Source: Anaerolineae bacterium
GTDB lineage: Bacteria > Chloroflexota > Anaerolineae > DTLA01
NCBI GenBank assembly: GCA_034436295.1
Contig: DAOTVT010000071.1
Location: 1,208 to 65,207 of the forward strand
Direction: 5' to 3'
DNA length: 64,000 nt
Position numbers and translations under genes: made by a program. The notes beneath the pieces were generated by a model. That model was not told the DNA's origin. It did not search any database and saw only the letters and a program-made list of their open reading frames with translations. Below, piece after piece: positions 1 to 59,010 of the stretch (position 1 is the stretch's first letter; each line of letters starts with the position of its first letter).

Positions 1-986
1 CCTCCATGAGCATTCAGTACTCGCGGGGGTGCCCGTTCAACTGCGATTTCTGCAACATCACGGCCCTGCTGGGCCACGTGCCCCGCGTGAAGACGCCGGC
101 GCAGATCATCGCCGAACTGGACGGCCTCTACCGCCTGGGGTGGCGCGGGCCGGTCTTCTTCGTGGACGACAACTTCATCGGCAACAAGAAGAGCCTGAAG
201 GCAGAACTGTTGCCGGCGCTCATAGAGTGGCGCAAGGGGAAGCGAGGCATCCCCTTCAACACCGAGGCGTCCATCAACCTGGCCGATGACGAGCCGCTGA
301 TGCACCTGATGGCGGAGGCGGGCTTTGACACGGTCTTCATCGGGATTGAGACGCCCGACGACGACAGCCTGGCCGAGTGCAGCAAGAAGCAGAATCGGAA
401 CCGCGACCTGGTGGCCGACGTGAAGCGCATCCAGCGCGCGGGGCTGCAGGTGCAGGGGGGCTTCATCGTGGGCTTTGACAGCGACGGCCCTTCCATCTTT
501 CAACGACAGGTTGATTTCATCCAGAAGAGCGGCATCGTAACGGCCATGGTGGGGCTGCTGCAAGCGCCGCTGGGCACGCGGCTCTACGAGCGCCTGAAGG
601 GCGAGGGGCGCATCCTCGCGTCCATGTCGGGCGACAACGTGGACGGCACGACGAACATCGTCCCCAAGATGCCCCTGGAAGCCTTGCGGGAGGGATACCG
701 GCACATCCTGTCGCAAATCTACTCGCCCGAACCGTACTACCGGCGGGTCAGGACGTTCCTGCGCGAGTACAAGGCGCCGCGGGTTTCGGTGCCTCTGGAC
801 AGGGAGTACATCCTAGCCCTATTCCGGGCCATCTACCGGTTGGGCGTGGCAGGGAAGGAGCGGCTGCAATACTGGCGGCTGATGGGGTGGACGCTGTTGC
901 GGCGGCCGCGGCTATTCCCGCTGGCCGTTACCCTGTCCATCTACGGGTACCATTTCCGCCGGGTGTGCGAGTTGCACGTGCTGTAA
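1..986 (+). CDS. B12-binding-domain-type radical SAM protein, 5' end truncated by window edge
   Basis: CxxxCxxC radical-SAM cluster motif ([11 protein letters not shown]) at the window start followed by a radical-SAM core; ORF is open to position 1. Confidence 0.7.
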
Positions 987-1002
987 CGGTTGCACCGGCA
1001 CC

Positions 1003-1458
1003 TCACCGTTTCCGCGCCTGCCATGCCGCCAGCACGGCCGCGCCTGCGACGATGCACACGTCGGCCAGGTTGAAGGCGGGCAGCGGGCCGATGCGAATGA
1101 AATCCACGGCGCCGCCGAGCCGCACGCGGTCCAGCAGATTGCCCGCCGCGCCGCCGACGATGAGGCCCAGCGCCGCGGCCATCGGCGCTGCCATCGTCGG
1201 CCGCCGCAGGTACAGCCCCACGATGCACACGATGGCGAGGACCGCCGCCCATACAAAAACCGCCCCGGCCCCCTGAAACAGGCCGAAGGCGGCTCCCGTG
1301 TTCGCCCCGACGCGCAGGTTCAGCCACGCCTCCGCATGCGGAAACGGCGCCCAGACCGCGGCGTCCGGCAGCGCATGGCGCAGCAGGACCTTACTCCCCT
1401 GGTCGGCGGCAAGCGCCAAAACCGAGCACAAGGGCAGTACCCATCTGTGTTTCGTCAA
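1003..1458 (-). CDS. lspA: lipoprotein signal peptidase II
   Basis: LspA-like motifs (DQGSK, NTGAAFGLF, GGAAGNLLDR, VDFI...FNLADV) in the 1003..1605 ORF. Start placed at an in-frame TTG near 1458, just downstream of the dksA-like gene; start position is uncertain. Confidence 0.75.
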   Translation of the reverse strand: MTKHRWVLPLCSVLALAADQGSKVLLRHALPDAAVWAPFPHAEAWLNLRVGANTGAAFGLFQGAGAVFVWAAVLAIVCIVGLYLRRPTMAAPMAAALGLIVGGAAGNLLDRVRLGGAVDFIRIGPLPAFNLADVCIVAGAAVLAAWQARKR

Positions 1459-1483
1459 AGGTGCCAACCTGTTGGCGCGCGGC

Positions 1484-1828
1484 CTACCGTGTTTCCTGCC
1501 GCCGCTGGCAGTGCATGCACAAGGCCGCCTGCGGATGCGCCTCCAGGCGCGCCCACTCAATCTTTTCCCCACACCGCAGGCAGAGGCCGTACGTGCCCTG
1601 CTCAAAGCGGTTCAGCGCCGCCTCCACCTCTTCCAGATTGCGCCACAGACTCTGCAGCAAGGAAACATTCGCCGCCTGGTCAAAAACGTCCGTCGCGTCA
1701 TCTGCCGCGTGATTGCCATATCCGGCGGGAGTGCGTTCCATAACCGGATGCTGCGCAATCGCCGCTTTGAGCCGCTGCTGCTCTTTCAACAACATCGTGC
1801 GCAGTTGCTCGTAACTTCGGACTACCAT
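1484..1828 (-). CDS. DksA/TraR family C4-type zinc-finger regulator
   Basis: 114 aa with a C-terminal CLRCGEKI...CMHC four-cysteine zinc finger and an N-terminal coiled coil typical of DksA/TraR. Confidence 0.8.
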   Translation of the reverse strand: MVVRSYEQLRTMLLKEQQRLKAAIAQHPVMERTPAGYGNHAADDATDVFDQAANVSLLQSLWRNLEEVEAALNRFEQGTYGLCLRCGEKIEWARLEAHPQAALCMHCQRRQETR

Positions 1829-2117
1829 TGTCGTCTCCCCTGATTCTCAGGGCAGGCATCCTGCCTGACTGGCAGGCCCAGGGCCTTCCAGAGGTCGGTG
1901 CCCCCCGACTGGCACGCCTGCTGGCCCGCTTCAGCCGGCGGCCCCGACGTACCCGGCCCCGCAGGCGCAAGCCCCGACGGACGCGATTCAACCGGGCTTC
2001 GCGCCTCCGATAGCCTGGGACTAGGGTTGTTGCGTTGTTCCTGCATGGTTCGCTTCCGCGCGACTTCCCTCCTCTGGATGACCGCCCTTCCCTCTGTCGG
2101 TTGTCGTGTACAGCCTT

Positions 2118-5100
2118 CTACCCTTCTATCCTCAGCAACCCCAAGACCAGGGGTTCGCCGTCCAGGTTGTGCTCCTGCAGGTGGGCGCCCTGTGGGGCGT
2201 CGCCCTCTGCCAGTTCGTCGGCCAGCGTCTCCTGCCGGATGTAGTCGCCGAACTCCGCGAACACCGCCTGCAGCCCCGCGCCGCAGCGGTAGAAAACCCG
2301 AATGTGGTCCTCAATGCGGAAGCCGGCGTCCTTGCGCTGCGTCTGGATGCGGCGCACGACTTCTCGCGCCATTCCTTCGCGCACCAGCGCCTCGGTGAGG
2401 GCCGTGCTCACTGCCACCACCAGGCCGTTCTCCTCGGCGACCGAGAAGCCTTCCTTGCTGTGGACGCGCACCTCCACTTCCTCAGGGAGGAGTTCCACCT
2501 CCTCGCCGTCCACCGAGACGCGCACGCTTCTGCCCGCCTGCAATTCGCGGGCCAGGTGGGCCGCAGGCAGCGCCGCGACCGCCGCGCGGAGTTTCGGGAA
2601 CCGCGCACCGTGCTTCTTGCCCAACACGTTGGGAAGCAGGCCGATCTCGTAGCGCACCAGGTCGTCGGCCTGGGCCACGACCTCCATCGCCTTGACGTTC
2701 AGTTCGTCGGTGATGACCGCCGCCATCCGCTCCACGATGGCCCGTGCGTCGTCATCTCTGGGCTTCACGATGACCTTCGCCAGCGGCTGGCGCACCTTGA
2801 GGTTCGCGGCGTTGCGGGCCGCGTGCCCCAGGCTCACCACCTGCCGCACCAATTGTACATCGGCCACCAGGGTGTTGTCAATTGCGGCGCGGTCGGCGAC
2901 GGGGAAGTCGCACAGGTGCACGCTCAACGGCGCGTTGGGGTCCACGCTCCGCACCAGGTTCTGGTACATCTCCTCGGACAGGAACGGCGTGAAGGGGGCC
3001 ATCAACTTGGCCAGGGTTACCAGGCACTCGTAGAGCGTGAGGTAGGCCGCGACCTTGTCCGTGTCCTCGCCGCTCTTCCAGAATCGGCGGCGGCTACGGC
3101 GGACGTACCAGTTGCTCAGCCCGTCCACGAATGCCTCAATGGCGCGGGTGGCGCCCGTTACGTCGTATGCGTTCAGGGACGCATCCACTCGCTCCACGAG
3201 CAGGTTCAACTCGGCCAGCACCCAGCGGTCCAGTTCCGACCGCTTGTCCAGCGGCATGGTGTGCTCCATCGGGTTGAAGCGGTCAATGCGTGCGTAGGTT
3301 ACGAAGAACGAGTAGGTGTTCCACACCGTGAGCAGGAAGCGGCGCAGGGTCTCGCGCACCAGTTCATTGCCGAAGCGGCGCGGATACCAGGGGGCCGCCA
3401 CCGAGTAGGTGTACCAGCGCAGCGCGTCGGCCCCTTGCTCGTTGAGGATGGGCCACGGGTCCACCACGTTGCCCACGTGCTTGCTCATCTTGGCGCCCTT
3501 CTCGTCGGTGCCGAACTCGGTAACCAGGCAGTTCTTGAACGCCGGGCTGTTGAACAACATGGTGGCCACGGCGTGGAGCGTGTAGAACCAGCCGCGGGTC
3601 TGGTCAATGGCCTCGCAAATGAAGTCGGCCGGGAACTGCTCCTTGAAGATATCCTGGTTCTCAAACGGGTAGTGCCATTGGGCGACGGGCATGGAGCCGG
3701 AGTCAAACCAGGCGTCGGCGACCTCGGGGATGCGGCGCATTTGCCCGCCGCACTCGGGGCACTTGAGGACGACGGCGTCCACGAACGGGCGGTGCGGGTC
3801 CAGGTCCGACAGGTCGCGCCCGGCCATCTGCCCCAACTCGGCCAGACTGCCGACGCAGATGCGGTGGCCGCAGTCCTGGCATTCCCAGATGGGCAGGGGC
3901 GTGCCCCAATAGCGCTCGCGGCCCAGCGCCCAGTCCACATTGGTCTCCAGCCAGTTGCCGAAGCGCCCGTGCTTGATGTGCTCGGGGTACCAGTTGATCT
4001 GCTCGTTGGTCGCCAGCATCTGGTCGCGGACCTTGGTGGTCTCAATGTACCAGGTGGTCTTGGCGTAGTAGAGCAGGGGCTGGTGGCAGCGCCAGCAGAA
4101 GGGATACGAGTGCTCGTACTTGGCCGCGCGGTACAGCAGGCCGCGGGTCTTCAGGTCGTCGGTGATGAGCGGGTCGGCGTCCTTGACGAACATGCCGCGC
4201 CAGGGCGTTACCTCGTTCACGAAGCGCCCGCGCAGGTCCACCGTCATGAGCACGGGCAGGTTGTACTCCTTGCCCACGTCCAGGTCGTCGGCCCCGAAGG
4301 CCGGCGCGATGTGGACGATGCCTGTGCCCTCCTCGGTGTTCACGAAGTCCGCGCCCACCACGTAGGCGTAGTCCTTGTCCACGGGCAGGAAGGTGTAGAG
4401 GGGGCGGTAGTGCTTGCCGATGAGTTCCTTCGCCTTCACCGAACGCAGGACCTGATACTCGCCGCGCAGGGCGTATTCCAGCAGCGCCTTGGCGAGGATG
4501 AGTTTGTCGTCGCCCTGCTGCACCAGGACGTACTCCACATGCGGGTGCACCGCCAACGCCACGTTCCCAGGGAGCGTCCACGGCGTCGTCGTCCACACCA
4601 GGAAATACGTCCCCGGCTCATCGCGCAGGGGGAACTTGACGAATACCGACGGGTCCTGCACGTCGCGGTAGCCCTGGGAGACCTCGTGGCTGGAGAGGGA
4701 CGTGCCGCAGCGAGCGCAGTAGGGCACGACCTTGTACCCCTGGTAGATGAGCCCCTTGTCCCAGAGTTGCTTGAGAATCCACCAGAGCGATTCCACATAC
4801 TCGGTCTTGTAGGTGATGTAGGCGTTCTCCAGGTCAATCCAGAACGCGATGCGCTCCGTCAGTTGCTCCCACTCTTTCACGTAGCGCCACACGCTCTCGC
4901 GGCACTTCTCGTTGAACGCCTCCACGCCATAGGCTTCAATCTCGGCCTTGCTGTTGATCCTGAGTTCCTTCTCCACTTCCAGTTCAACGGGAAGGCCCTG
5001 GGTGTCCCATCCGCCCTTGCGCAGGACGTAGTATCCCTTCATGGTGCGGTAGCGCGGGAAGAGGTCCTTGAGGACGCGCGGCAGGACGTGCCCGGCGTGC

Positions 5101-5261: not shown

Positions 5262-5662
5262 GCGACCCCTCCGAGAAAGCCTTTAGCCGTTGGCCGATAG
5301 CCTCTAGCGAGCAGCGGTCAGCGGTCGGCGGACACGGGATTGCCTCGGCGTGCCGACGGCAGACCGCAGTATGCGAACCGCTGCAACAAAAAACTCCCGC
5401 CCCATAGGGACGAGAGCGATCTCCCGCGGTACCACCCTGCTTGACAGGCGAGCCTGTCCACTCTGTGGGTACGTGTTCATACCCCCGCCGCTGTAACGGG
5501 CGCGCCCCGGCCAAGTCTACTGGGAGTTGCCTCCGTTCGGTTGGCGGCTCCGGAAGGATTTTCGTCGGGGTTCGCGCATCCGGCTCCCACCGGCCCCGGA
5601 CTCGCTGGGCGTCTCCGCCCGACTACTCGTTTCCATCACAGCCTTTGGTTGGCGTATTCGGT
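5262..5662 (-). promoter_or_regulatory. T-box riboswitch leader of ileS
   Basis: On the minus-strand transcript: stem-III hairpin GACAGGCUCGCCUGUC followed by the canonical T-box sequence AAGCAGGGUGGUACCGCGGGAG (plus-strand reverse complement at about 5422..5443). This is followed by a 10-bp hairpin (CUCUCGUCCC/GGGGCGGGAG) and a U6 tract ending about 30 nt before the ileS ATG. A candidate Ile specifier (AUC) lies within GAAAAUCC; specifier assignment is tentative. Confidence 0.7.
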
Positions 5663-9293: not shown

Positions 9294-9299
9294 GTGTCC

Positions 9300-9420
9300 T
9301 CCTCGCGCTCCAGCGGTCAGCGGTCAGCGATCAGCAGTCAGTCCCGATCGCTGCCCGCTGCCCGCTGATTGCTGTTCGCTGTTTGCTGATTGCTGATCGC
9401 TGTTTGCTGACTGCTCGCCA
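9300..9420. repeat. inverted array of heptanucleotide repeats (long imperfect hairpin)
   Basis: GGTCAGC/GATCAGC heptamers on the left arm and their complements CTGATTG/CTGATCG/CTGACTG on the right arm. Same family as 51285..51470 and 56826..56975. Confidence 0.7.
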
Positions 9421-31175: not shown

Positions 31176-31528
31176 GAATTCTCACACAAAGACACAAAGA
31201 CACGGGGAAAAACCTTTGTGTCTTGGTGCCTTTGTGAGGGGTTTTCATTCTCACACAAAGACACAAAGACACGGAGGAAAGAACTTTGTGTCTCCGTGTC
31301 TTTGTGTGCGGATTGATTCTCACACAAAGACACAAAGACACGGAGAAAAACCTTTGTGTCTCCGTGTCTTTGTGTGCGGATTGATTCTCACACAAAGACA
31401 CGAAGACACGGAGGAAAAAACTCTGTGTCTCCGTGTCTTTGTGTGCGGTTTCATTCTCACACAAAGACACAAAGACACGGAGAGAATTCTTTGTGTCTTG
31501 GTGTCTCTGTGTGCGGATTGATTCTCAC
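31176..31528. repeat. tandem array (~5 units) of ~68-bp hairpin repeats
   Basis: Unit GATTCTCACACAAAGACACAAAGACACGGAG-AAAAACC-TTTGTGTCTCCGTGTCTTTGTGTGCGGATT. Each unit is a ~25-bp near-perfect palindrome. Confidence 0.9.
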
Positions 31529-31535
31529 AGGCTGT

Positions 31536-31931: not shown

Positions 31932-32205
31932 TTTCTCACACAGAGGCACAAAGGCACAGGGGAAAACCCTTTGTGTCTTGGTGTCTTTGTGTGCGGATTG
32001 ATTCTCACACGAAGACACAAAGACACAGAGAAAATTCTTTGTGTCTTGGTGTCTTTGTGTGCGGATTGATTCTCACACAGAGGCACAAAGGCACAGGGAA
32101 AACCCCTTTGTGTCTTGGTGTCTTTGTGTGCGGATTGATTCTCACACCAAGACACAAAGACACGGAGAAAATTCTTTGTGTCTCCGTGTCTTTGTGTGGC
32201 CTCCC
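31932..32205. repeat. second tandem array (~4 units) of the same ~68-bp hairpin repeat
   Basis: Same unit family as 31176..31528 with minor variants (CACAGAGGCACAAAGGCACAGGG). Confidence 0.9.
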
Positions 32206-41659: not shown

Positions 41660-42065
41660 CCCGCCGCGTATGGATTCGGTTCCGCCTCGTGTTGGCGTGC
41701 CCCCTGGCTTCGGCGGCTACGGAAAGCCGCCCCACGTGTCTACTGTAACCGCGAATCCACGCGAATCCACGCGAATGGAGAACAGCCCCTATCCTCCATT
41801 CGTGTGAATTCGTGTTATTCGTGGATAGCGTTTAGCGAGCGTGGGGCGGGTTCCCATACGTGCCCCCTTCGTCCGGCGGCTATGGAGAGCCGCCCTACGT
41901 GTCTACTGTAACCGCGAATCCACGCGAATCCACGCGAATGGAGAACAGCCCCTATTCGTGTGAATTCGTGTTATTCGTGGATAGCGTTTAGCGAGCGTGG
42001 GGCGGGTTCCCATACGTGCCCCCTTCGTCCGGCGGCTACGGAAAGCCGCCCTACGTGTTTGGGTC
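41660..42065. repeat. tandemly duplicated composite repeat (families E, C, D; two ~185-bp copies)
   Basis: CCCCCTGGCTTCGGCGGCTACGGAAAGCCGCCCCACGTGTCTACTGTAACCGCGAATCCACGCGAATCCACGCGAATGGAGAACAGCCCCTAT...ATTCGTGTTATTCGTGGATAGCGTTTAGCGAGCGTGGGGCGGGTTCCCATACGTGCC is repeated twice. Confidence 0.85.
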
Positions 42066-51284: not shown

Positions 51285-51470
51285 GCTAGTAGCCTTTAGC
51301 CTACAGCCTTTAGCCTATAGCCTTTGGCCTTGGTGCGATGGCACTGCCCAACGCCTCCCAACCCAGGCGAATGGCCCGCTGCCAGAGGCTAAAGGCTATA
51401 GGCCAATGGCTAATGGCTACAGGCTAATGGCTAGCGGCTAACGGCTAACGGCCAAACACCAATGGTTTCT
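51285..51470. repeat. inverted arrays of heptanucleotide repeats forming a long hairpin between mreC and mreB
   Basis: Left arm TAGCCTT/TAGCCTA heptamers; right arm GGCTAAA/GGCTATA/GGCTAAT/GGCTAAC heptamers (reverse complements), in total ~20 heptads. Confidence 0.8.
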
Positions 51471-54747: not shown

Positions 54748-55953
54748 ATGAGCGAACTGTTCGGCAATCAGAAGGAAATGTTGAAGCAACTCATCAAGGC
54801 GCTGCACCTAGGGGCGGATCCCGAGATGCTCAAGAGCCGATTCCGGACGCTCCTGGGCGAAATCGGCCCCGCCGACATCGCCAGGGCCGAGCAGGAACTC
54901 ATCGCCGAGGGGATGCCGGCGGAGGAGATTCACCGCCTGTGCGATGTCCATCTGGCCGTGCTGCGCGAGGCGGTGGAGAAGGAGAAGCCAGGCGAAGGCC
55001 CTGGGCATCCAATCCACATCCTGCTCAAGGAGCACGAATACGTCAAGGGCGACGCGCGCGATCTGGCCGAGGTCATCGGACTCCTGGAGCGGGCGACGGA
55101 TTGGAGCGCCGTGGAAGGGGAACTGGAGCGCCTGGATGCGCTGCTCCGCGACTTCCAGGAGTACAACAAGCACAAGGTCCGCGAGGAGAACTGCTTGTTT
55201 CCGGTGCTGGAGAAACACGGGGTAACCGGCCCGCCGTCCATCATGTGGATGGAGCACGACCAGCAGCGCGCTGCCGTCAAGGCGGCTGCCGAGGCGCTGG
55301 CGCAGCGGGGGACGCGCGCCTTCGCCGAGTTCAAGGCGGCCATCCTGCCCCATCTGCGCGCGCTGGCAGAGGGCGTGCCCAGCCACTTCTACAAGGAAGA
55401 GAATATCCTGTTCCCCACCGCCCTGCGCCTGATTTCTGACGAGGAGTTCAAGGCGATCAAGGCGTCCATGGACGATTTGGGCTACTGCTATTTCACGCCG
55501 CCGGAGGTCATCGGCGCGCGCGAAGAATTGGAGGCGCAGGTCGGCGAGGGCGAGATTCGCCTGCCGTCGGGCGCGCTGACGCCTGCCGAACTGGAGGCGG
55601 TGCTCAACACGCTGCCCGTGGACATCACGTTTGTGGGCGCGGACGACACGGTGCGCTATTTCAGCATGGGCCGCGAGCGAATTTTCCCCCGCACGCCCGC
55701 TATCATCGGCCGCTCCGTCCAATTGTGCCACCCCCAGAAGAGCGTCCACGTGGTCAACCGCATCCTGGAGGATTTCAAGGCGGGGCGGCGCGAGGTGGCC
55801 GAGTTCTGGATTCAGATGAACGGGCGTCTGATTCACATCCGCTACTTCCCCGTGCGGGGCAAGGATGGGCGCTACCTGGGCACGCTGGAGGTAACCCAGG
55901 ACATCACGGACATCCAGAAGATCACGGGGCAGAAGCGGCTGCTGGACGACTGA
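54748..55953 (+). CDS. DUF438-domain protein with hemerythrin-like and PAS regions
   Basis: Hemerythrin HHE-like helices (EHEYVKGD, HKVREENCLFP) followed by a DUF438/PAS-like C-terminal half (VDITFVGADDTVRYFS). Confidence 0.7.
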   Translation: MSELFGNQKEMLKQLIKALHLGADPEMLKSRFRTLLGEIGPADIARAEQELIAEGMPAEEIHRLCDVHLAVLREAVEKEKPGEGPGHPIHILLKEHEYVKGDARDLAEVIGLLERATDWSAVEGELERLDALLRDFQEYNKHKVREENCLFPVLEKHGVTGPPSIMWMEHDQQRAAVKAAAEALAQRGTRAFAEFKAAILPHLRALAEGVPSHFYKEENILFPTALRLISDEEFKAIKASMDDLGYCYFTPPEVIGAREELEAQVGEGEIRLPSGALTPAELEAVLNTLPVDITFVGADDTVRYFSMGRERIFPRTPAIIGRSVQLCHPQKSVHVVNRILEDFKAGRREVAEFWIQMNGRLIHIRYFPVRGKDGRYLGTLEVTQDITDIQKITGQKRLLDD

Positions 55954-55979
55954 GGCGGCGCCGGGGCGCACCCGAAAGA

Positions 55980-56050
55980 ATGGATTCGGTTCCGTCTTGT
56001 GTGGACGACCAAAGTGCGACGGACTTCCGAGAGTGCGCCGCACCAACAAA
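55980..56050. repeat. dispersed repeat units (families E and B)
   Basis: ATGGATTCGGTTCCGTCTTGTGT followed by the imperfect palindrome GTGCGACGGACTTCCGAGAGTGCGCCGCAC. Confidence 0.7.
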
Positions 56051-56078
56051 CTTTGGACCGAGTCAAGAGCGCGCCAAA

Positions 56079-56107
56079 TTGACAGGCGTCTGCTCTGTTC
56101 ATATACT
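56079..56107 (+). promoter_or_regulatory. sigma70-like promoter upstream of hicB
   Basis: TTGACA, 17-nt spacer, TATACT. Confidence 0.55.
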
Positions 56108-56158
56108 GGAAGCGGCTGCGGTATTCGTGGGGAGTAGGCAAACGCCGGAGGAATCTCC

Positions 56159-56365
56159 ATGAAGTTCTACGTTACGCTGGAACGCGACGAAGACGGCATC
56201 TGGGTGGCCGAGTGTCCCGCGATCCCTGGCTGTGTGAGCCAGGGAAAGACGCGAGAAGAGGCGCTGACCCACATCAAAGAAGCCATCCGACTTTGCCTGG
56301 AAGTGCGCGCTGAGAAGGGCTTGCCGCTAACCGTTGAAATGCACCAGGTAGAGGTCTTGGCGTGA
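56159..56365 (+). CDS. hicB: HicB-family antitoxin (UPF0150)
   Basis: MKFYVTLERDEDGIWVAECPAIPGCVSQGKTREEALTHIKEAIRLCLE is a typical HicB/UPF0150 RNase-H-like fold. Confidence 0.8.
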   Translation: MKFYVTLERDEDGIWVAECPAIPGCVSQGKTREEALTHIKEAIRLCLEVRAEKGLPLTVEMHQVEVLA

Positions 56366-56583
56366 CGCGCGTGGTTCCTGTGCTCAGCAGCAGGCAGGTG
56401 GTGAAGGCGTTTGAGCGACTTGGGTCGGCTGACGTAGCGACGGATCCAGGAAGGCAAGCATCATCCGCGCGTCGGGTTCGGAAGGAGGTGGTGCGCGGGA
56501 TTACGCAAACGGCGGGTTCATCGGGGAGAGTAGCGCCTGGACTGGGCGGTGAGGGCCACTTCATGAGCCGCCTGCCCAGTTGA
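56362..56583 (+). pseudogene. probable decayed HicA-family toxin gene
   Basis: First ~20 codons (PVLSSRQVVKAFERLG) match HicA. The continuation lacks the GSH/VPxH motifs, and a GKHH-like fragment appears only in the +1 frame. The 3' end overlaps the glmS ribozyme P1. Confidence 0.35.
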
Positions 56584-56770
56584 CGAGGACGGAGGTTCCT
56601 CACCTCGCGGTGAGGCTAACCGGCACGCGCCGGGAAAATCGGAAGATCGGCGGAAGCCTCCGGGGGCGATCCCGCCCCCACAACTCCCCTCCAAAACGAG
56701 CGCGTCCCCAAATCCGCGCGGGCGACCGCCGGGACAAAGGGCCGCGCAGGGATCGGGCGAGACTCATCGT
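56530..56770 (+). ncRNA. glmS ribozyme (glucosamine-6-phosphate-activated)
   Basis: Cleavage-site sequence UAGCGCC at 56531-56537. P1 is CUGGGCGG...CCGCCUGCCCAG. Core GACGAGGACGGAGGUU and AUCGGCGGAAGCCUCCGGGGGCGA match the conserved GACGAGGAUGGAGGUU and UCGGCGGAUGCCUCCCGG elements. Located upstream of glmS. Confidence 0.6.
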
Positions 56771-56825
56771 CCCGCGAAGTATCCGCATGGAGGGGCCTCG
56801 CGCGCTCTTGTTGCGCATGCCCCAT

Positions 56826-56975
56826 GGTTAGCGGTCAGCGAGCAGCAGTCAGCCGTCAGCGGTCTGCGATCAGCGAGCGACGGATGCCGCTAACGGCTAA
56901 CGGCTAACGGCTGACCGCTAAAGGCTAGAGGCTAACGGCTGACGGCTAAAGGCCAACGGCCAACGGCTATCATCA
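56826..56975. repeat. inverted arrays of heptanucleotide repeats (long hairpin) between ribozyme and glmS start
   Basis: Left arm GGTCAGC-type heptamers; right arm (GGCTAAC)n with variants GGCTGAC/GGCTAAA/GGCCAAC, ~11 heptads. Confidence 0.8.
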
Positions 56976-56989
56976 CTGGAGGAACGCTT

Positions 56990-58825
56990 ATGTGCGGGAT
57001 TGTGGGATACATCGGCCCCCGCGACGCGACGCAAATCATCATGGACGGCCTGCGCCGTCTGGAGTACCGCGGCTACGACTCGGCCGGCATCGCCGTGCTA
57101 CAGGAGGGGCGCCTGGTCGTCCGCCGCGACGCCGGCAAACTGGCCAACCTCGCCGCCATCCTGGAGCGCGAGCCGGTGCACGGCCCCGTCGGCATCGGCC
57201 ACACGCGCTGGGCCACCCACGGCCGGCCCAGCCAGCGCAACGCCCATCCCCACACCGATTGCACGGGCGAGATCGTGGTCATCCACAACGGCATCGTGGA
57301 GAACTTCATGGCGTTGAAGGCGGAACTGCAGGCCGAAGGGCACCGATTCCGCTCGGATACCGACACGGAAGTAATCGTGCATCTTGTGGAGAAGTACTAC
57401 CAGGGCGACATCGCCGAGGCGGCGCGGGCGGCCTTCCAGCGGCTGCGCGGCGCCCACGCCATTGTCGTCATGACGTCGCGCGAACCCGACCGACTTGTGG
57501 CGACGCGCATCGGCAACGCGGGAGGCGTAACGGTGGGCCTGGGCGACGACGAGATGTTCCTGGCCTCGGATATCCCTGCGATTCTGGAGCACACGCGCCG
57601 CATGGTCTTTCTGGAAGACCGCGAGATGGCCGTCGTAACGCGCAGCGGCGCGCAGTACTACCGCCTGACGGGCGAGCCGGTGTCCAAGACGCCCCACACC
57701 GTGCCCTACGATCCGGTGGCGGCGGCCAAGGGCGAGTACAAGCACTTTATGCAGAAGGAAATCTACGAGCAGCCCCGCGCCGTAACCGACACCATTCGCG
57801 GGCGCATGGACTTTGAGACCGGCGAGGCGATCCTGGCGGACGTAGGCATCGGGGAGGACGAGGCGCGCGCCCTGGATCGGGTCGTCATCGTGGCGTGCGG
57901 CACGTCGGCCTACGCGGGCCTGGTGGGCAAGTTCATGCTGGAATCGCTGGCGGGCCTGCCGGTGGAGGTGGACTACGGCTCCGAGTTTCGCTACCGCGAC
58001 CCTCACATCACCCCGCGGACGCTGGTGGTGGCCATCACCCAGTCGGGCGAGACGGTGGACACGCTGGCGGCCATGGACGAGGCGCGGCGCAAGGGGGCCA
58101 GGATCGTGAGCATCGTCAACGCGGTGGGGAGCATGGCAGCGCGCGTGTCCGACGGCGTTATCTACATGCAGGCAGGCCCCGAAATCGGCGTGGCATCCAC
58201 TAAGGCGTTCACCACATCGCTGGTGGATTTGTACCTGCTGGGCACGTACCTGGGGCAGAAGCGCGGGCGGCTGGACAGGGAGCGGTCGCTGGCGCTGGCC
58301 CAGGATTTGGCCGAACTGCCCAATCTGATGGGGAGCGTGCTGGCCAACGGCCACGAGTACGAGGCGCTGGCGCAGTTGTACTACGAGAAGGCCGACTTCC
58401 TGTACCTGGGGCGGGGCATCAACTACCCCATCGCCCTAGAGGGCGCGCTGAAACTCAAGGAAATCTCGTACATCCACGCCGAAGGCTATCCGGCGGGCGA
58501 GATGAAGCATGGTCCCATCGCCCTGATTGACGACCACATGCCGGTCATGATCATCGCCATCCGCGACCGCGTGTACGAGAAGATCATGGGCAACGTGGAG
58601 GAGGTCAAGGCGCGCAACGGGATCGTGCTGGCGCTGGGCACGCAGGGCGACGCGCACCTGGCCGAGAAGGCCGATCATGTGATTTATGTGCCCCCGCTGC
58701 CGGAACTCCTGTCGCCGGTGGTTACGGTCATCCCGCTGCAACTGTTCGCGTACCACATGGCGGTGCGCCGCGGGTGCGATGTGGATCAGCCGCGCAACCT
58801 GGCGAAGAGCGTAACGGTGGAGTGA
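56990..58825 (+). CDS. glmS: glutamine--fructose-6-phosphate aminotransferase (isomerizing)
   Basis: N-terminal MCGIVGY Ntn-amidotransferase start, two SIS domains, 611 aa. Confidence 0.95.
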   Translation: MCGIVGYIGPRDATQIIMDGLRRLEYRGYDSAGIAVLQEGRLVVRRDAGKLANLAAILEREPVHGPVGIGHTRWATHGRPSQRNAHPHTDCTGEIVVIHNGIVENFMALKAELQAEGHRFRSDTDTEVIVHLVEKYYQGDIAEAARAAFQRLRGAHAIVVMTSREPDRLVATRIGNAGGVTVGLGDDEMFLASDIPAILEHTRRMVFLEDREMAVVTRSGAQYYRLTGEPVSKTPHTVPYDPVAAAKGEYKHFMQKEIYEQPRAVTDTIRGRMDFETGEAILADVGIGEDEARALDRVVIVACGTSAYAGLVGKFMLESLAGLPVEVDYGSEFRYRDPHITPRTLVVAITQSGETVDTLAAMDEARRKGARIVSIVNAVGSMAARVSDGVIYMQAGPEIGVASTKAFTTSLVDLYLLGTYLGQKRGRLDRERSLALAQDLAELPNLMGSVLANGHEYEALAQLYYEKADFLYLGRGINYPIALEGALKLKEISYIHAEGYPAGEMKHGPIALIDDHMPVMIIAIRDRVYEKIMGNVEEVKARNGIVLALGTQGDAHLAEKADHVIYVPPLPELLSPVVTVIPLQLFAYHMAVRRGCDVDQPRNLAKSVTVE

Positions 58826-58835
58826 TGCGCCCATC

Positions 58836-59010
58836 GGGTGGGGCCCCTCACCCTGGCCCTCTCCCCGCAAGGCGGGGCGAGGGGATTGCCCCCCTCACCC
58901 TAGCCCTCTCCCCGCGAGCGGGGCGAGGGGATTGCCCCCCTCACCCTAGCCCTCTCCCCGCAAGGTGGGGCGAGGGGATTGCACTACGGTTCTGGCCGCG
59001 AGCGGGGCGA
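58836..59010. repeat. four tandem units of dispersed repeat family A
   Basis: CCCCTCACCCTNGCCCTCTCCCCGCNAGNGGGGCGAGGGGATTGC x4, same family as 5697..5800. Confidence 0.85.

Follow-up and report, generated by a model that had tools for sequence, protein, structure and literature searches.

What becomes of an essential, riboswitch-controlled gene when a toxin–antitoxin (TA) cassette settles immediately before it, and the cassette then decays? The question is raised by a 64,000-nucleotide stretch of the genome of an Anaerolineae bacterium (Chloroflexota; GenBank assembly GCA_034436295.1, contig DAOTVT010000071.1, positions 1,208 to 65,207 of the forward strand; hereafter the window, with all coordinates counted from its first letter), in which a glmS ribozyme occupies the 5′ leader of glmS, and a hicB antitoxin gene with a stump of its hicA toxin partner stands directly before the ribozyme. 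The account favoured here, which we consider likely in its entirety, is that the element is a glmS ribozyme, that a hicB–hicA cassette was inserted upstream of it and decayed, and that glmS is now transcribed from the promoter that the cassette brought with it.

Scanning of the whole window with cmscan against Rfam 15 returned two matches above the curated thresholds, a T-box and a glmS ribozyme (RF00234), the latter at 56521–56757 on the forward strand with 42.3 bits (gathering score 37), spanning the full model (1–167) at E = 1.6e-6. In the 1-kb region 56000–57050, rescanned at a permissive threshold, the same match has E = 2.7e-8 and glmS is the sole credible Rfam match. A reading of the letters alone (the original prediction) had proposed a glmS ribozyme about 460 nt before glmS, to be checked with RF00234; the score lies over the threshold, the core motifs stand where that reading had put them, and the predicted cleavage junction, A56532/G56533, is 457 nt 5′ of the glmS ATG. 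The ribozyme, in coding-strand sense and delimited by the Rfam match, core pairings and pair counts, runs from 56532 to 56757 (forward strand, as are all features of this locus), with the A/GCGCC cleavage-site motif at 56532–56537 and the core motifs GACGAGGACGGAGGUU at 56582–56597 and UCGGCGGAAGCCUCCGGG at 56647–56664. The gene that follows (56990–58825) encodes a GlmS of 611 amino acids featuring Pfam GATase_6/7 and two SIS domains, with a Shine–Dalgarno (SD) sequence, GGAGGA, at 56978–56983 ahead of the ATG at 56990–56992.

Core pairings were placed on the window by mapping from a published description, in which P2.2 is formed by C2–C5 with GGCG, leaving nucleotide 6 bulged, and P2.1 by CGA with UCG (PMC7125110). 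On this mapping, P2.2 pairs 56534–56537 with 56649–56652; P1 pairs 56540–56547 with 56574–56581; P2.1 pairs 56584–56586 with 56639–56641 (the CGA of GACGAGG with UCG); P2 pairs 56591–56595 with 56657–56661 (GGAGG with CCUCC); and P3 pairs 56662–56667 with 56674–56679. The P3.1 pseudoknot joins 56668–56673 to 56749–56754, as GAUCCC:GGGAUC in the window and as GGCCAC:GUGGC or UCCAC:GUGGA elsewhere among relatives, P4 pairs 56700–56704 with 56743–56747, and P4.1 (56714–56732) is closed by a GCGA tetraloop of the GNRA type. The window keeps every core motif and pairing intact, including the cleavage motif at 56532–56538 with its bulged position 6.

GlmS places the window in Chloroflexota, the protein being 62–96% identical to GlmS of 80 Chloroflexota genomes; the relatives are metagenome-assembled genomes labelled Anaerolineae or Caldilineae, and grade from near-identical metagenome contigs (numbered here L001–L006) through L007 (96%), L008 (92%) and L024 (86%) to others at 71% or less. 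Anchored on the invariant core motifs, a ribozyme was located in 49 of 87 sequences, and pairing was counted in 29 Chloroflexota sequences alongside shuffled and slid-partner controls. In this set 90.7% of cells were paired, versus 72.7% in the shuffled and 34–46% in the slid controls, with a covariation score of 0.483 versus 0.170. Compensatory changes were found at six of eight P1 pairs (94.8% paired) and at all six pairs of P3, and P2 was 100% paired, one of its pairs being A–U in 16 sequences and C–G in 13. P2.1 was invariant and 98.9% paired, thereby carrying no covariation information, and three pairs of P2.2 were likewise invariant, the fourth, known to be poorly conserved, being C–G in 10 sequences and A.A in 19; such lack of variation is expected of a catalytic core and was not counted against either helix. 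The check proposed for P2 and P2.1 therefore ended with P2 covarying and P2.1 invariant and intact; within the window clade, P4 and P4.1 were 100% paired, with the GCGA loop.

The extra GC-rich hairpin that had been remarked on in the ribozyme is present, and is in fact two hairpins, 56598–56615 (CCUCACC-UCGC-GGUGAGG) and 56620–56633 (CCGGC-ACGC-GCCGG), which with the linker CUAA form an insertion at 56598–56633 between the 5′ strand of P2 and the 3′ strand of P2.1; the spacing from GACGAGG to GCGGAAGCCUCC is 69 nt in the window versus about 29 nt in the Rfam consensus. The first hairpin shows compensatory changes at seven of seven pairs among the 29 sequences, and the spacing from GACGAGG to GCGGAWGCCUCC is 52–125 nt in 45 of 45 distinct Chloroflexota loci surveyed in detail. 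Carried by all 45 relatives and covarying, the insertion thus characterises the lineage and is not, as had been supposed, a peculiarity of this locus.

Set against the RF00234 models (Bacillus subtilis, B. anthracis, Thermoanaerobacter tengcongensis), the window has the same A/GCGCC site, the same P1–P2–P2.1–P2.2 double-pseudoknot core with identical catalytic-core sequences, and likewise P3/P3.1, P4/P4.1 with a GNRA loop and a coding-strand position in the glmS leader. It differs in the two-hairpin insertion of about 40 nt between P2 and P2.1, in a P3–P4 junction that is 13 nt longer and bears a C/U tract, in a structured spacer of 230 nt ahead of the SD sequence, and in having no recognised promoter of its own. 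Ribozymes of this family have already been reported in Chloroflexi, and the element at 56532–56757 is, judged from its sequence, a genuine, functional-looking glmS ribozyme of the Chloroflexota type, ordinary in kind.

The history of the DNA before the ribozyme can be read from its relatives. In L008 and L024, which have no cassette, the stop codon of a DUF438/hemerythrin/PAS gene is followed by about 40 nt, a TTGACA-17-TATAAT promoter whose −10 box stands 69–70 nt 5′ of the cleavage site, a conserved leader and the ribozyme; this layout, as the alignments are read, is the ancestral arrangement. In three lineages hicB, with its own TTGACA-17-TA(T/C)A(C/A)T promoter, stands inside that spacer of about 40 nt. 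L087 has hicB alone, with no trace of hicA and the native glmS promoter intact; in L007 a deletion joins hicB to hicA codons ~29–75, which are frameshifted, and the native promoter is kept as TTGAGC-16-TATAAT; and in the window and L001–L006 hicB is followed by an N-terminal hicA remnant of about 21 codons, with the native promoter lost. On the alignments, then, hicA is a gene destroyed by different deletions in three lineages. A hicB–hicA cassette with its own promoter would have landed in the ~40 nt that separate the DUF438/hemerythrin gene from the glmS promoter, and its decay in the window lineage would also have done away with the hicA stop codon and with both boxes (−35 and −10) of the native promoter. 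The proposal that a TA locus had inserted next to the ribozyme and that its hicA had decayed thus stands, although not the notion that it decayed against the ribozyme, since the insertion lay 5′ of the glmS promoter; the apparent removal of that promoter by cassette decay, the important consequence in this lineage, had gone unmentioned. L007 and L024 are mutually closest (glmS 94.6% identical at the nucleotide level) and the cassette is found only in L007, from which it follows that L024 lost the cassette cleanly or that the cassette moved by recombination. A pairwise alignment also hints at a second relic of the hicA N-terminus at L007 1845–1875, which was not used here.

Of the cassette, hicB (56159–56365) survives as a gene whose product, of 68 amino acids, matches Pfam PF15919 (HicB_lk_antitox; 35.9 bits versus a cut-off of 27) and has 6858 homologues. 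The ratio of nonsynonymous to synonymous substitution rates (dN/dS) is 0.05–0.09 versus L007 and L087, and hicB is, by these comparisons, an intact orphan antitoxin gene held by purifying selection. The hicA remnant (56362–56424), whose GTG start overlaps the hicB stop, retains about 21 N-terminal codons, of which VPVLSSRQVVKAF (56374–56412) shares 9 of 13 residues, at positions 4–16 (tblastn), with LPVLSGREAVKAF of the intact HicA of L089. Neither the open reading frame (ORF) at 56362–56583 nor its N-terminal piece gave a Pfam match, even at E ≤ 10. Past its first ~21 codons this ORF is homologous to the noncoding ribozyme leader of relatives that lack hicA or carry it elsewhere, and it is taken as a read-through because the deletion removed the hicA stop codon; the sequence comparison makes it a HicA remnant and not a PF07927 toxin gene. 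The overlap between a hicA-like ORF and the 5′ end of the ribozyme, which had been pointed out before, is accordingly real, but the overlapping part is noncoding leader and not hicA.

This conserved noncoding leader, GGAAGGAGGUGGUGCGC...GGGGAGAGU (56481–56531), was identified by blastn and MAFFT homology to L007, L008, L024 and L087, in all of which it lies 3′ of the promoter. The possibility that RKEVVRGITQTAGSS, in the tail of the ORF, represents the HicA C-terminus was rejected, the DNA in question being homologous to the noncoding leader of the same four loci; the genuine hicA C-terminus in L007 lies 120 nt further 5′ than the RKEVVRGITQTAGSS-equivalent DNA. As a separate observation, the hicA GTG, with GAGG 7 nt 5′ of it, opens an ORF of 73 codons that passes through the cleavage site and P1 and ends at a UGA within UUGACGAGG; were this ORF to be translated by coupling to hicB, the ribozyme core would be transiently unfolded by ribosomes.

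Compared with type II HicAB systems (PF15919, PF07927), the window shows the same hicB–hicA order, the overlapping stop and start codons and a promoter of the cassette's own, and its HicB is 85% identical to a HicB paired with an intact 75-residue HicA (L089). Unlike those systems, the toxin gene is cut to about 21 codons, and the antitoxin is an orphan yet under purifying selection; the window HicB is also short, consisting of the N-terminal domain only, with no recognisable DNA-binding domain.

Where, then, does glmS transcription begin? The promoter-like site 5′ of hicB, TTGACA-17-TATACT at 56079–56107, agrees with the consensus at 11 of 12 positions, has equivalents 5′ of hicB in L007 and L087, and is the one sigma-70-like site found in 55800–57100, where 0.1 would be expected; no terminator-like site was found in the same interval. 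What remains of the native glmS promoter lies at 56430–56470: CATCAT (56459–56464) occupies the position of the relatives' TATAAT, no −35 box is left, and the region falls short of its L007 counterpart by about 12 nt. In L007, L008, L024, L010, L016 and many distant relatives the −10 box ends 67–70 nt 5′ of the cleavage site; in the window, a scan for sites with at least 9 of 12 matches found none within 200 nt of the cleavage site. With the native −35 and −10 boxes erased, glmS is likely to be transcribed from the hicB promoter, and hicB, the ribozyme and glmS probably now share that promoter as a single transcription unit. On a shared hicB–ribozyme–glmS RNA, self-cleavage would part hicB from glmS; by analogy with Bacillus, glucosamine-6-phosphate (GlcN6P) would trigger cleavage at A56532/G56533, and the downstream glmS fragment with its 5′-OH end would then be degraded, as the self-cleaved glmS mRNA of Bacillus is by RNase J1 (PMC10810187).

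In several relatives the ribozyme is enlarged in the loop of P1. Cleavage site and GACGAGG usually delimit a span of 24–50 nt (49 nt in the window), which reaches 85 nt in L008, 112 nt in L009 (heptamer-type repeats), 118 nt in L080 (GGACGAT and ATCGTCC arrays), 195 nt in L024 (one palindromic element, at 2466–2632), 205 nt in L010 and 641 nt in L007, whose P1 loop (2022–2634) holds up to ~610 nt in the form of five to six tandem copies of the palindrome seen in L024, of ~113 nt each, GTCATTGCGAGCGAAGCGAAGCAATCTCGCG...CGCAATGAC; the P1 loop of L013 also hosts repeats. The P1 stem is retained in every relative with such an insertion. Rfam scores of L001 (35.6 bits), L008 (33.8 bits) and L024 (27.4 bits) fall under the gathering score of 37, and L007 and L087 gave no Rfam glmS match at E ≤ 0.01. 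Classing L001, L007, L008 and L024 as ribozyme-less by the gathering score was rejected, these being false negatives from P1-loop insertions; because of insertions in P1 and in the loop of P2, not one of the closest relatives has its ribozyme recognised at the gathering score, and routine annotation probably under-counts the glmS ribozymes of Chloroflexota. A different arrangement is seen in L010, where the ribozyme (169–551) stands 2.5 kb 5′ of glmS and ahead of a three-gene unit (767–4839) of a DegT/DnrJ-type aminotransferase, a GFO/IDH/MocA oxidoreductase and glmS.

Two other readings compete with transcription from the hicB promoter. It is improbable that glmS keeps its own non-consensus promoter, located past the hicA remnant but 5′ of the cleavage site, or else 3′ of the ribozyme, with hicB a mere neighbour: CATCAT does lie 67 nt from the cleavage site like the relatives' TATAAT and keeps its A2 and T6, and several distant relatives likewise have no site of at least 9/12 within 200 nt, so the promoter scan is not exhaustive, but the −35 region offers at best 3/6 matches at 16–18 nt spacing within the shortened interval, the four nearest lineages have sites of 10–12/12 exactly at the native promoter's place, and only the hicB site was detected in 55800–57100. 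A far weaker candidate is a ribozyme decaying as a relic after promoter loss, with glmS regulated otherwise, which we think highly improbable; the window's Rfam score merely 5 bits over the cut-off would suit such decay, as would the P1 mismatch and sub-threshold score of L001, but the window preserves P2.1, P2.2, P2, the cleavage site, the P4.1 GNRA loop and P3.1 intact, and the low score stems from insertions common to all functional-looking relatives.

Some points nevertheless weigh against promoter capture and the stepwise history proposed for it. All of the relatives compared are metagenome assemblies, and the ~600-nt tandem array in the P1 loop of L007 may in part reflect assembly error. 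Promoters were sought with an E. coli-type consensus, which the relatives match nearly perfectly at the expected place, and CATCAT, with A2 and T6 kept, might still work weakly as a −10 box given a different sigma factor or the help of an activator. In the sister strain L001, whose GlmS is identical, ACG replaces the hicB ATG (L001 2180–2190, aligned to window 56159) and P1 contains a G.G mismatch, which argues that the locus is still changing within the species.

Between the ribozyme and glmS stands a heptamer-repeat hairpin (56826–56975), composed of about seven GGTCAGC units and about twelve units of the near-complement GCTAACG, and ending a few nucleotides before the SD sequence. Its two arrays, delimited by TRF at 56826–56875 and 56889–56969, form inverted arms that are 80% complementary, and its minimum free energy of −70.7 kcal/mol (z = −4.9) was matched by none of 200 shuffles. 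The heptamer inverted repeat reported before glmS is thus really there, but it is not specific to glmS and belongs to a common period-7 class: 7 is the dominant tandem period in 656 kb of loci (63 arrays, versus 24 of period 8 and 16 of period 6), such arrays often being inverted pairs whose unit differs by lineage. L001 and L003 have shorter versions of the hairpin, by 21 nt and 49 nt respectively, and shorter arrays occupy the equivalent position before glmS in L007, L024, L008 and L087. A MIR8622 match on the hairpin was dismissed as chance (19 bits versus a cut-off of 197; E = 0.62).

The simplest reading is of a slippage-prone, self-folding repeat that is tolerated because growth of its stem-loop leaves the flanks undisturbed; repeats of this kind would probably expand and contract by slippage, and be tolerated in 5′ leaders as in the P1 loops of relatives. 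We regard as rather doubtful the alternative that the hairpin is a selected element of the glmS leader, whether an exonuclease barrier, an mRNA stabiliser or an array for a heptamer-binding protein. Its place just 5′ of the SD sequence, at the equivalent position in five lineages at 86–96% GlmS identity, would accord with selection, as would similar arrays directly 5′ of the SD sequences of other window genes, published heptamer arrays 5′ of start codons that are proposed as translational-control sites (PMC4679880), and the effect of ribosomes and structure on RNase J1 action (PMC10810187); set against these are the copy-number differences of 21 and 49 nt among near-identical strains, the lineage-dependence of the unit sequence, the occurrence of like arrays inside P1 loops (L009, L013, L080), where self-folding alone matters, and the many ribozyme-bearing relatives that have no array at all. 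No literature on heptamer repeats in Chloroflexota was found. Cyanobacterial STRR heptamers are a comparable kind of repeat. The closest published analogue is the TAACTGA heptamer, arrays of which lie 5′ of start codons in Beggiatoaceae, cyanobacteria and Bacteroidetes (PMC4679880). The window repeats share with the TAACTGA and STRR heptamers a tandem period of 7, an intergenic position just 5′ of start codons and a variable copy number; their units, GGTCAGC and GCTAACG, are not TAACTGA in direct orientation but are arranged as inverted arms that fold to long hairpins, making them the same phenomenon in another family, and unlike the former, Chloroflexota heptamers also sit inside ribozyme stem-loops.

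Elsewhere in the window there are two more inverted-repeat hairpins of heptamers. One, with CAGCGGT and GCTGATT units at 9294–9415 (−56 to −61 kcal/mol), stands directly 5′ of the SD sequence of a DUF5666 gene on the minus strand; the other, with TAGCCTT and AGGCTAA units at 51290–51456 (about −95 kcal/mol), takes up the intergenic region that mreC shares with a divergent gene of unknown kind. The T-box (5403–5648, minus strand; 105 bits versus a cut-off of 93) lies 5′ of a gene for a class I isoleucyl-type aminoacyl-tRNA synthetase of 1047 amino acids (domains tRNA-synt_1, Anticodon_1 and DUF5915), and between T-box and SD sequence, as at glmS, there is a heptamer array (~5262–5335, minus strand) with units CCGCTGA, CGGCTAA and similar. 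Repeats of further families occur at 31178–31529, 31933–32198, 41696–42058 and 58844–58982; they include units of 69 nt made up of ACACAAAG and CTTTGTGT octamers, others of 156 nt made up of CGCGAATCCA and ATTCGTGTGA decamers, and a GC-rich repeat of 46 nt in three copies directly 3′ of the glmS stop codon. Self-complementary repeats of short units are unusually abundant in this genome.

A further feature of the ribozyme concerns its possible contact with the ribosome-binding site. In Chloroflexota ribozymes a C/U-rich tract lies directly 3′ of P3 (CUCCCCUCC in the window), where the Rfam consensus is empty; in the window this anti-Shine–Dalgarno-like tract, CCCCUCCA plus ACG, occupies 56686–56698 in the P3–P4 junction. 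Among 42 genome loci the best partner of the tract was the SD sequence of glmS (ending within 8–10 nt of the start codon) in 17, and among 41 independent metagenome loci it was so in 22; tracts preferred their own SD sequence with p = 0.0007 in the genome set and p = 0.004 in the metagenome set. In 77 Chloroflexota loci combined, drawn from L007–L086 and L090–L209, pairing with the own SD sequence was stronger than with that of other loci (−12.96 versus −11.67 kcal/mol, p = 2e-5); the heuristic by which the end of P3 was set adds noise to this analysis. Helices of tract and SD sequence extend up to 12 bp, and their flanks co-vary, as in CCUCCAAA/UUUGGAGG, CCUCCGU/ACGGAGG and CCCCUUC/GAAGGGG. 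An explanation of the own-leader preference by shared GC content was rejected, composition-keeping controls with reversed SD or tract giving p = 0.09–0.13, and so was the use of the tract as an alternative partner for the 5′ strand of P2: the tract stays CCUCC where P2 is GGCGG/CCGCC, and does not follow the A/C variation of P2.

Against its own SD sequence the window tract ranks only 17th of 37. It pairs instead with a G-rich box, CGC..UGGAGGGG (GGAGGGG), at 56784–56795, 36 nt past P3.1 and at about the position that the SD sequence has in short-leader relatives. The duplex has −16.8 kcal/mol (z = −3.0; RNAduplex) and the helix 11 pairs, with 96% of cells paired versus 35–48% in slid controls and two compensatory changes, both in L087; these data come from five window-clade sequences, with the compensatory changes in a single lineage. 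In five relatives with long leaders (L050, L058, L078, L114 and L136), a common AAGGGGCGUCCCC mini-hairpin lies 3′ of the ribozyme, and its 5′ half is what the C/U tract pairs with there (GCCCCUUC with GAAGGGGC); the mini-hairpin might serve as a recurrent decoy for SD pairing.

Taken together, we put forward tentatively, as somewhat less probable than its opposite, a Chloroflexota subclass of glmS ribozyme that would have the two-hairpin P2 insertion, a tract–SD helix placing the ribosome-binding site in the peripheral domain (the helix being moved to an internal box in the window clade) and a tolerance of P1 repeats as long as hundreds of nucleotides, and that would be mostly missed at the Rfam gathering score. 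If such a subclass exists, initiation of translation would compete with folding or cleavage of the ribozyme, a translational layer would be added to a riboswitch thought to act via mRNA decay alone, and in the window clade, where the helix would have moved to a box inside the leader that resembles an SD sequence, the real SD sequence would be freed. In the papers covered, which did not include key surveys, glmS regulation appears only as cleavage and then RNase J1 decay (PMC10810187), and no description of SD pairing by a glmS ribozyme was found. As in translational riboswitches that sequester the SD sequence, a conserved pyrimidine tract complementary to it is present in about half of the Chloroflexota relatives, but the partner of the window tract is not the SD sequence. 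Since no ligand-induced change of conformation is known for the glmS ribozyme, occlusion of the SD sequence would be either constitutive or tied to folding or cleavage.

The ribozyme alone adds nothing new, and cassette insertion, three toxin decays and probable promoter capture are neat and unsurprising in kind. The locus offers a dated, stepwise example of a TA cassette inserting before an essential riboswitch-controlled gene and losing its toxin in three ways; in one lineage the cassette apparently gave its promoter to the essential gene, making a transcript that the ribozyme would itself cut. In this lineage repeat hairpins colonise the stem-loops and leaders of ribozymes, with the result that standard Rfam annotation misses the closest relatives. 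The complementarity of tract and SD sequence, the only element of possible interest to riboswitch specialists, yields a testable hypothesis: that glmS ribozymes outside the Firmicutes may couple translation to ribozyme structure.

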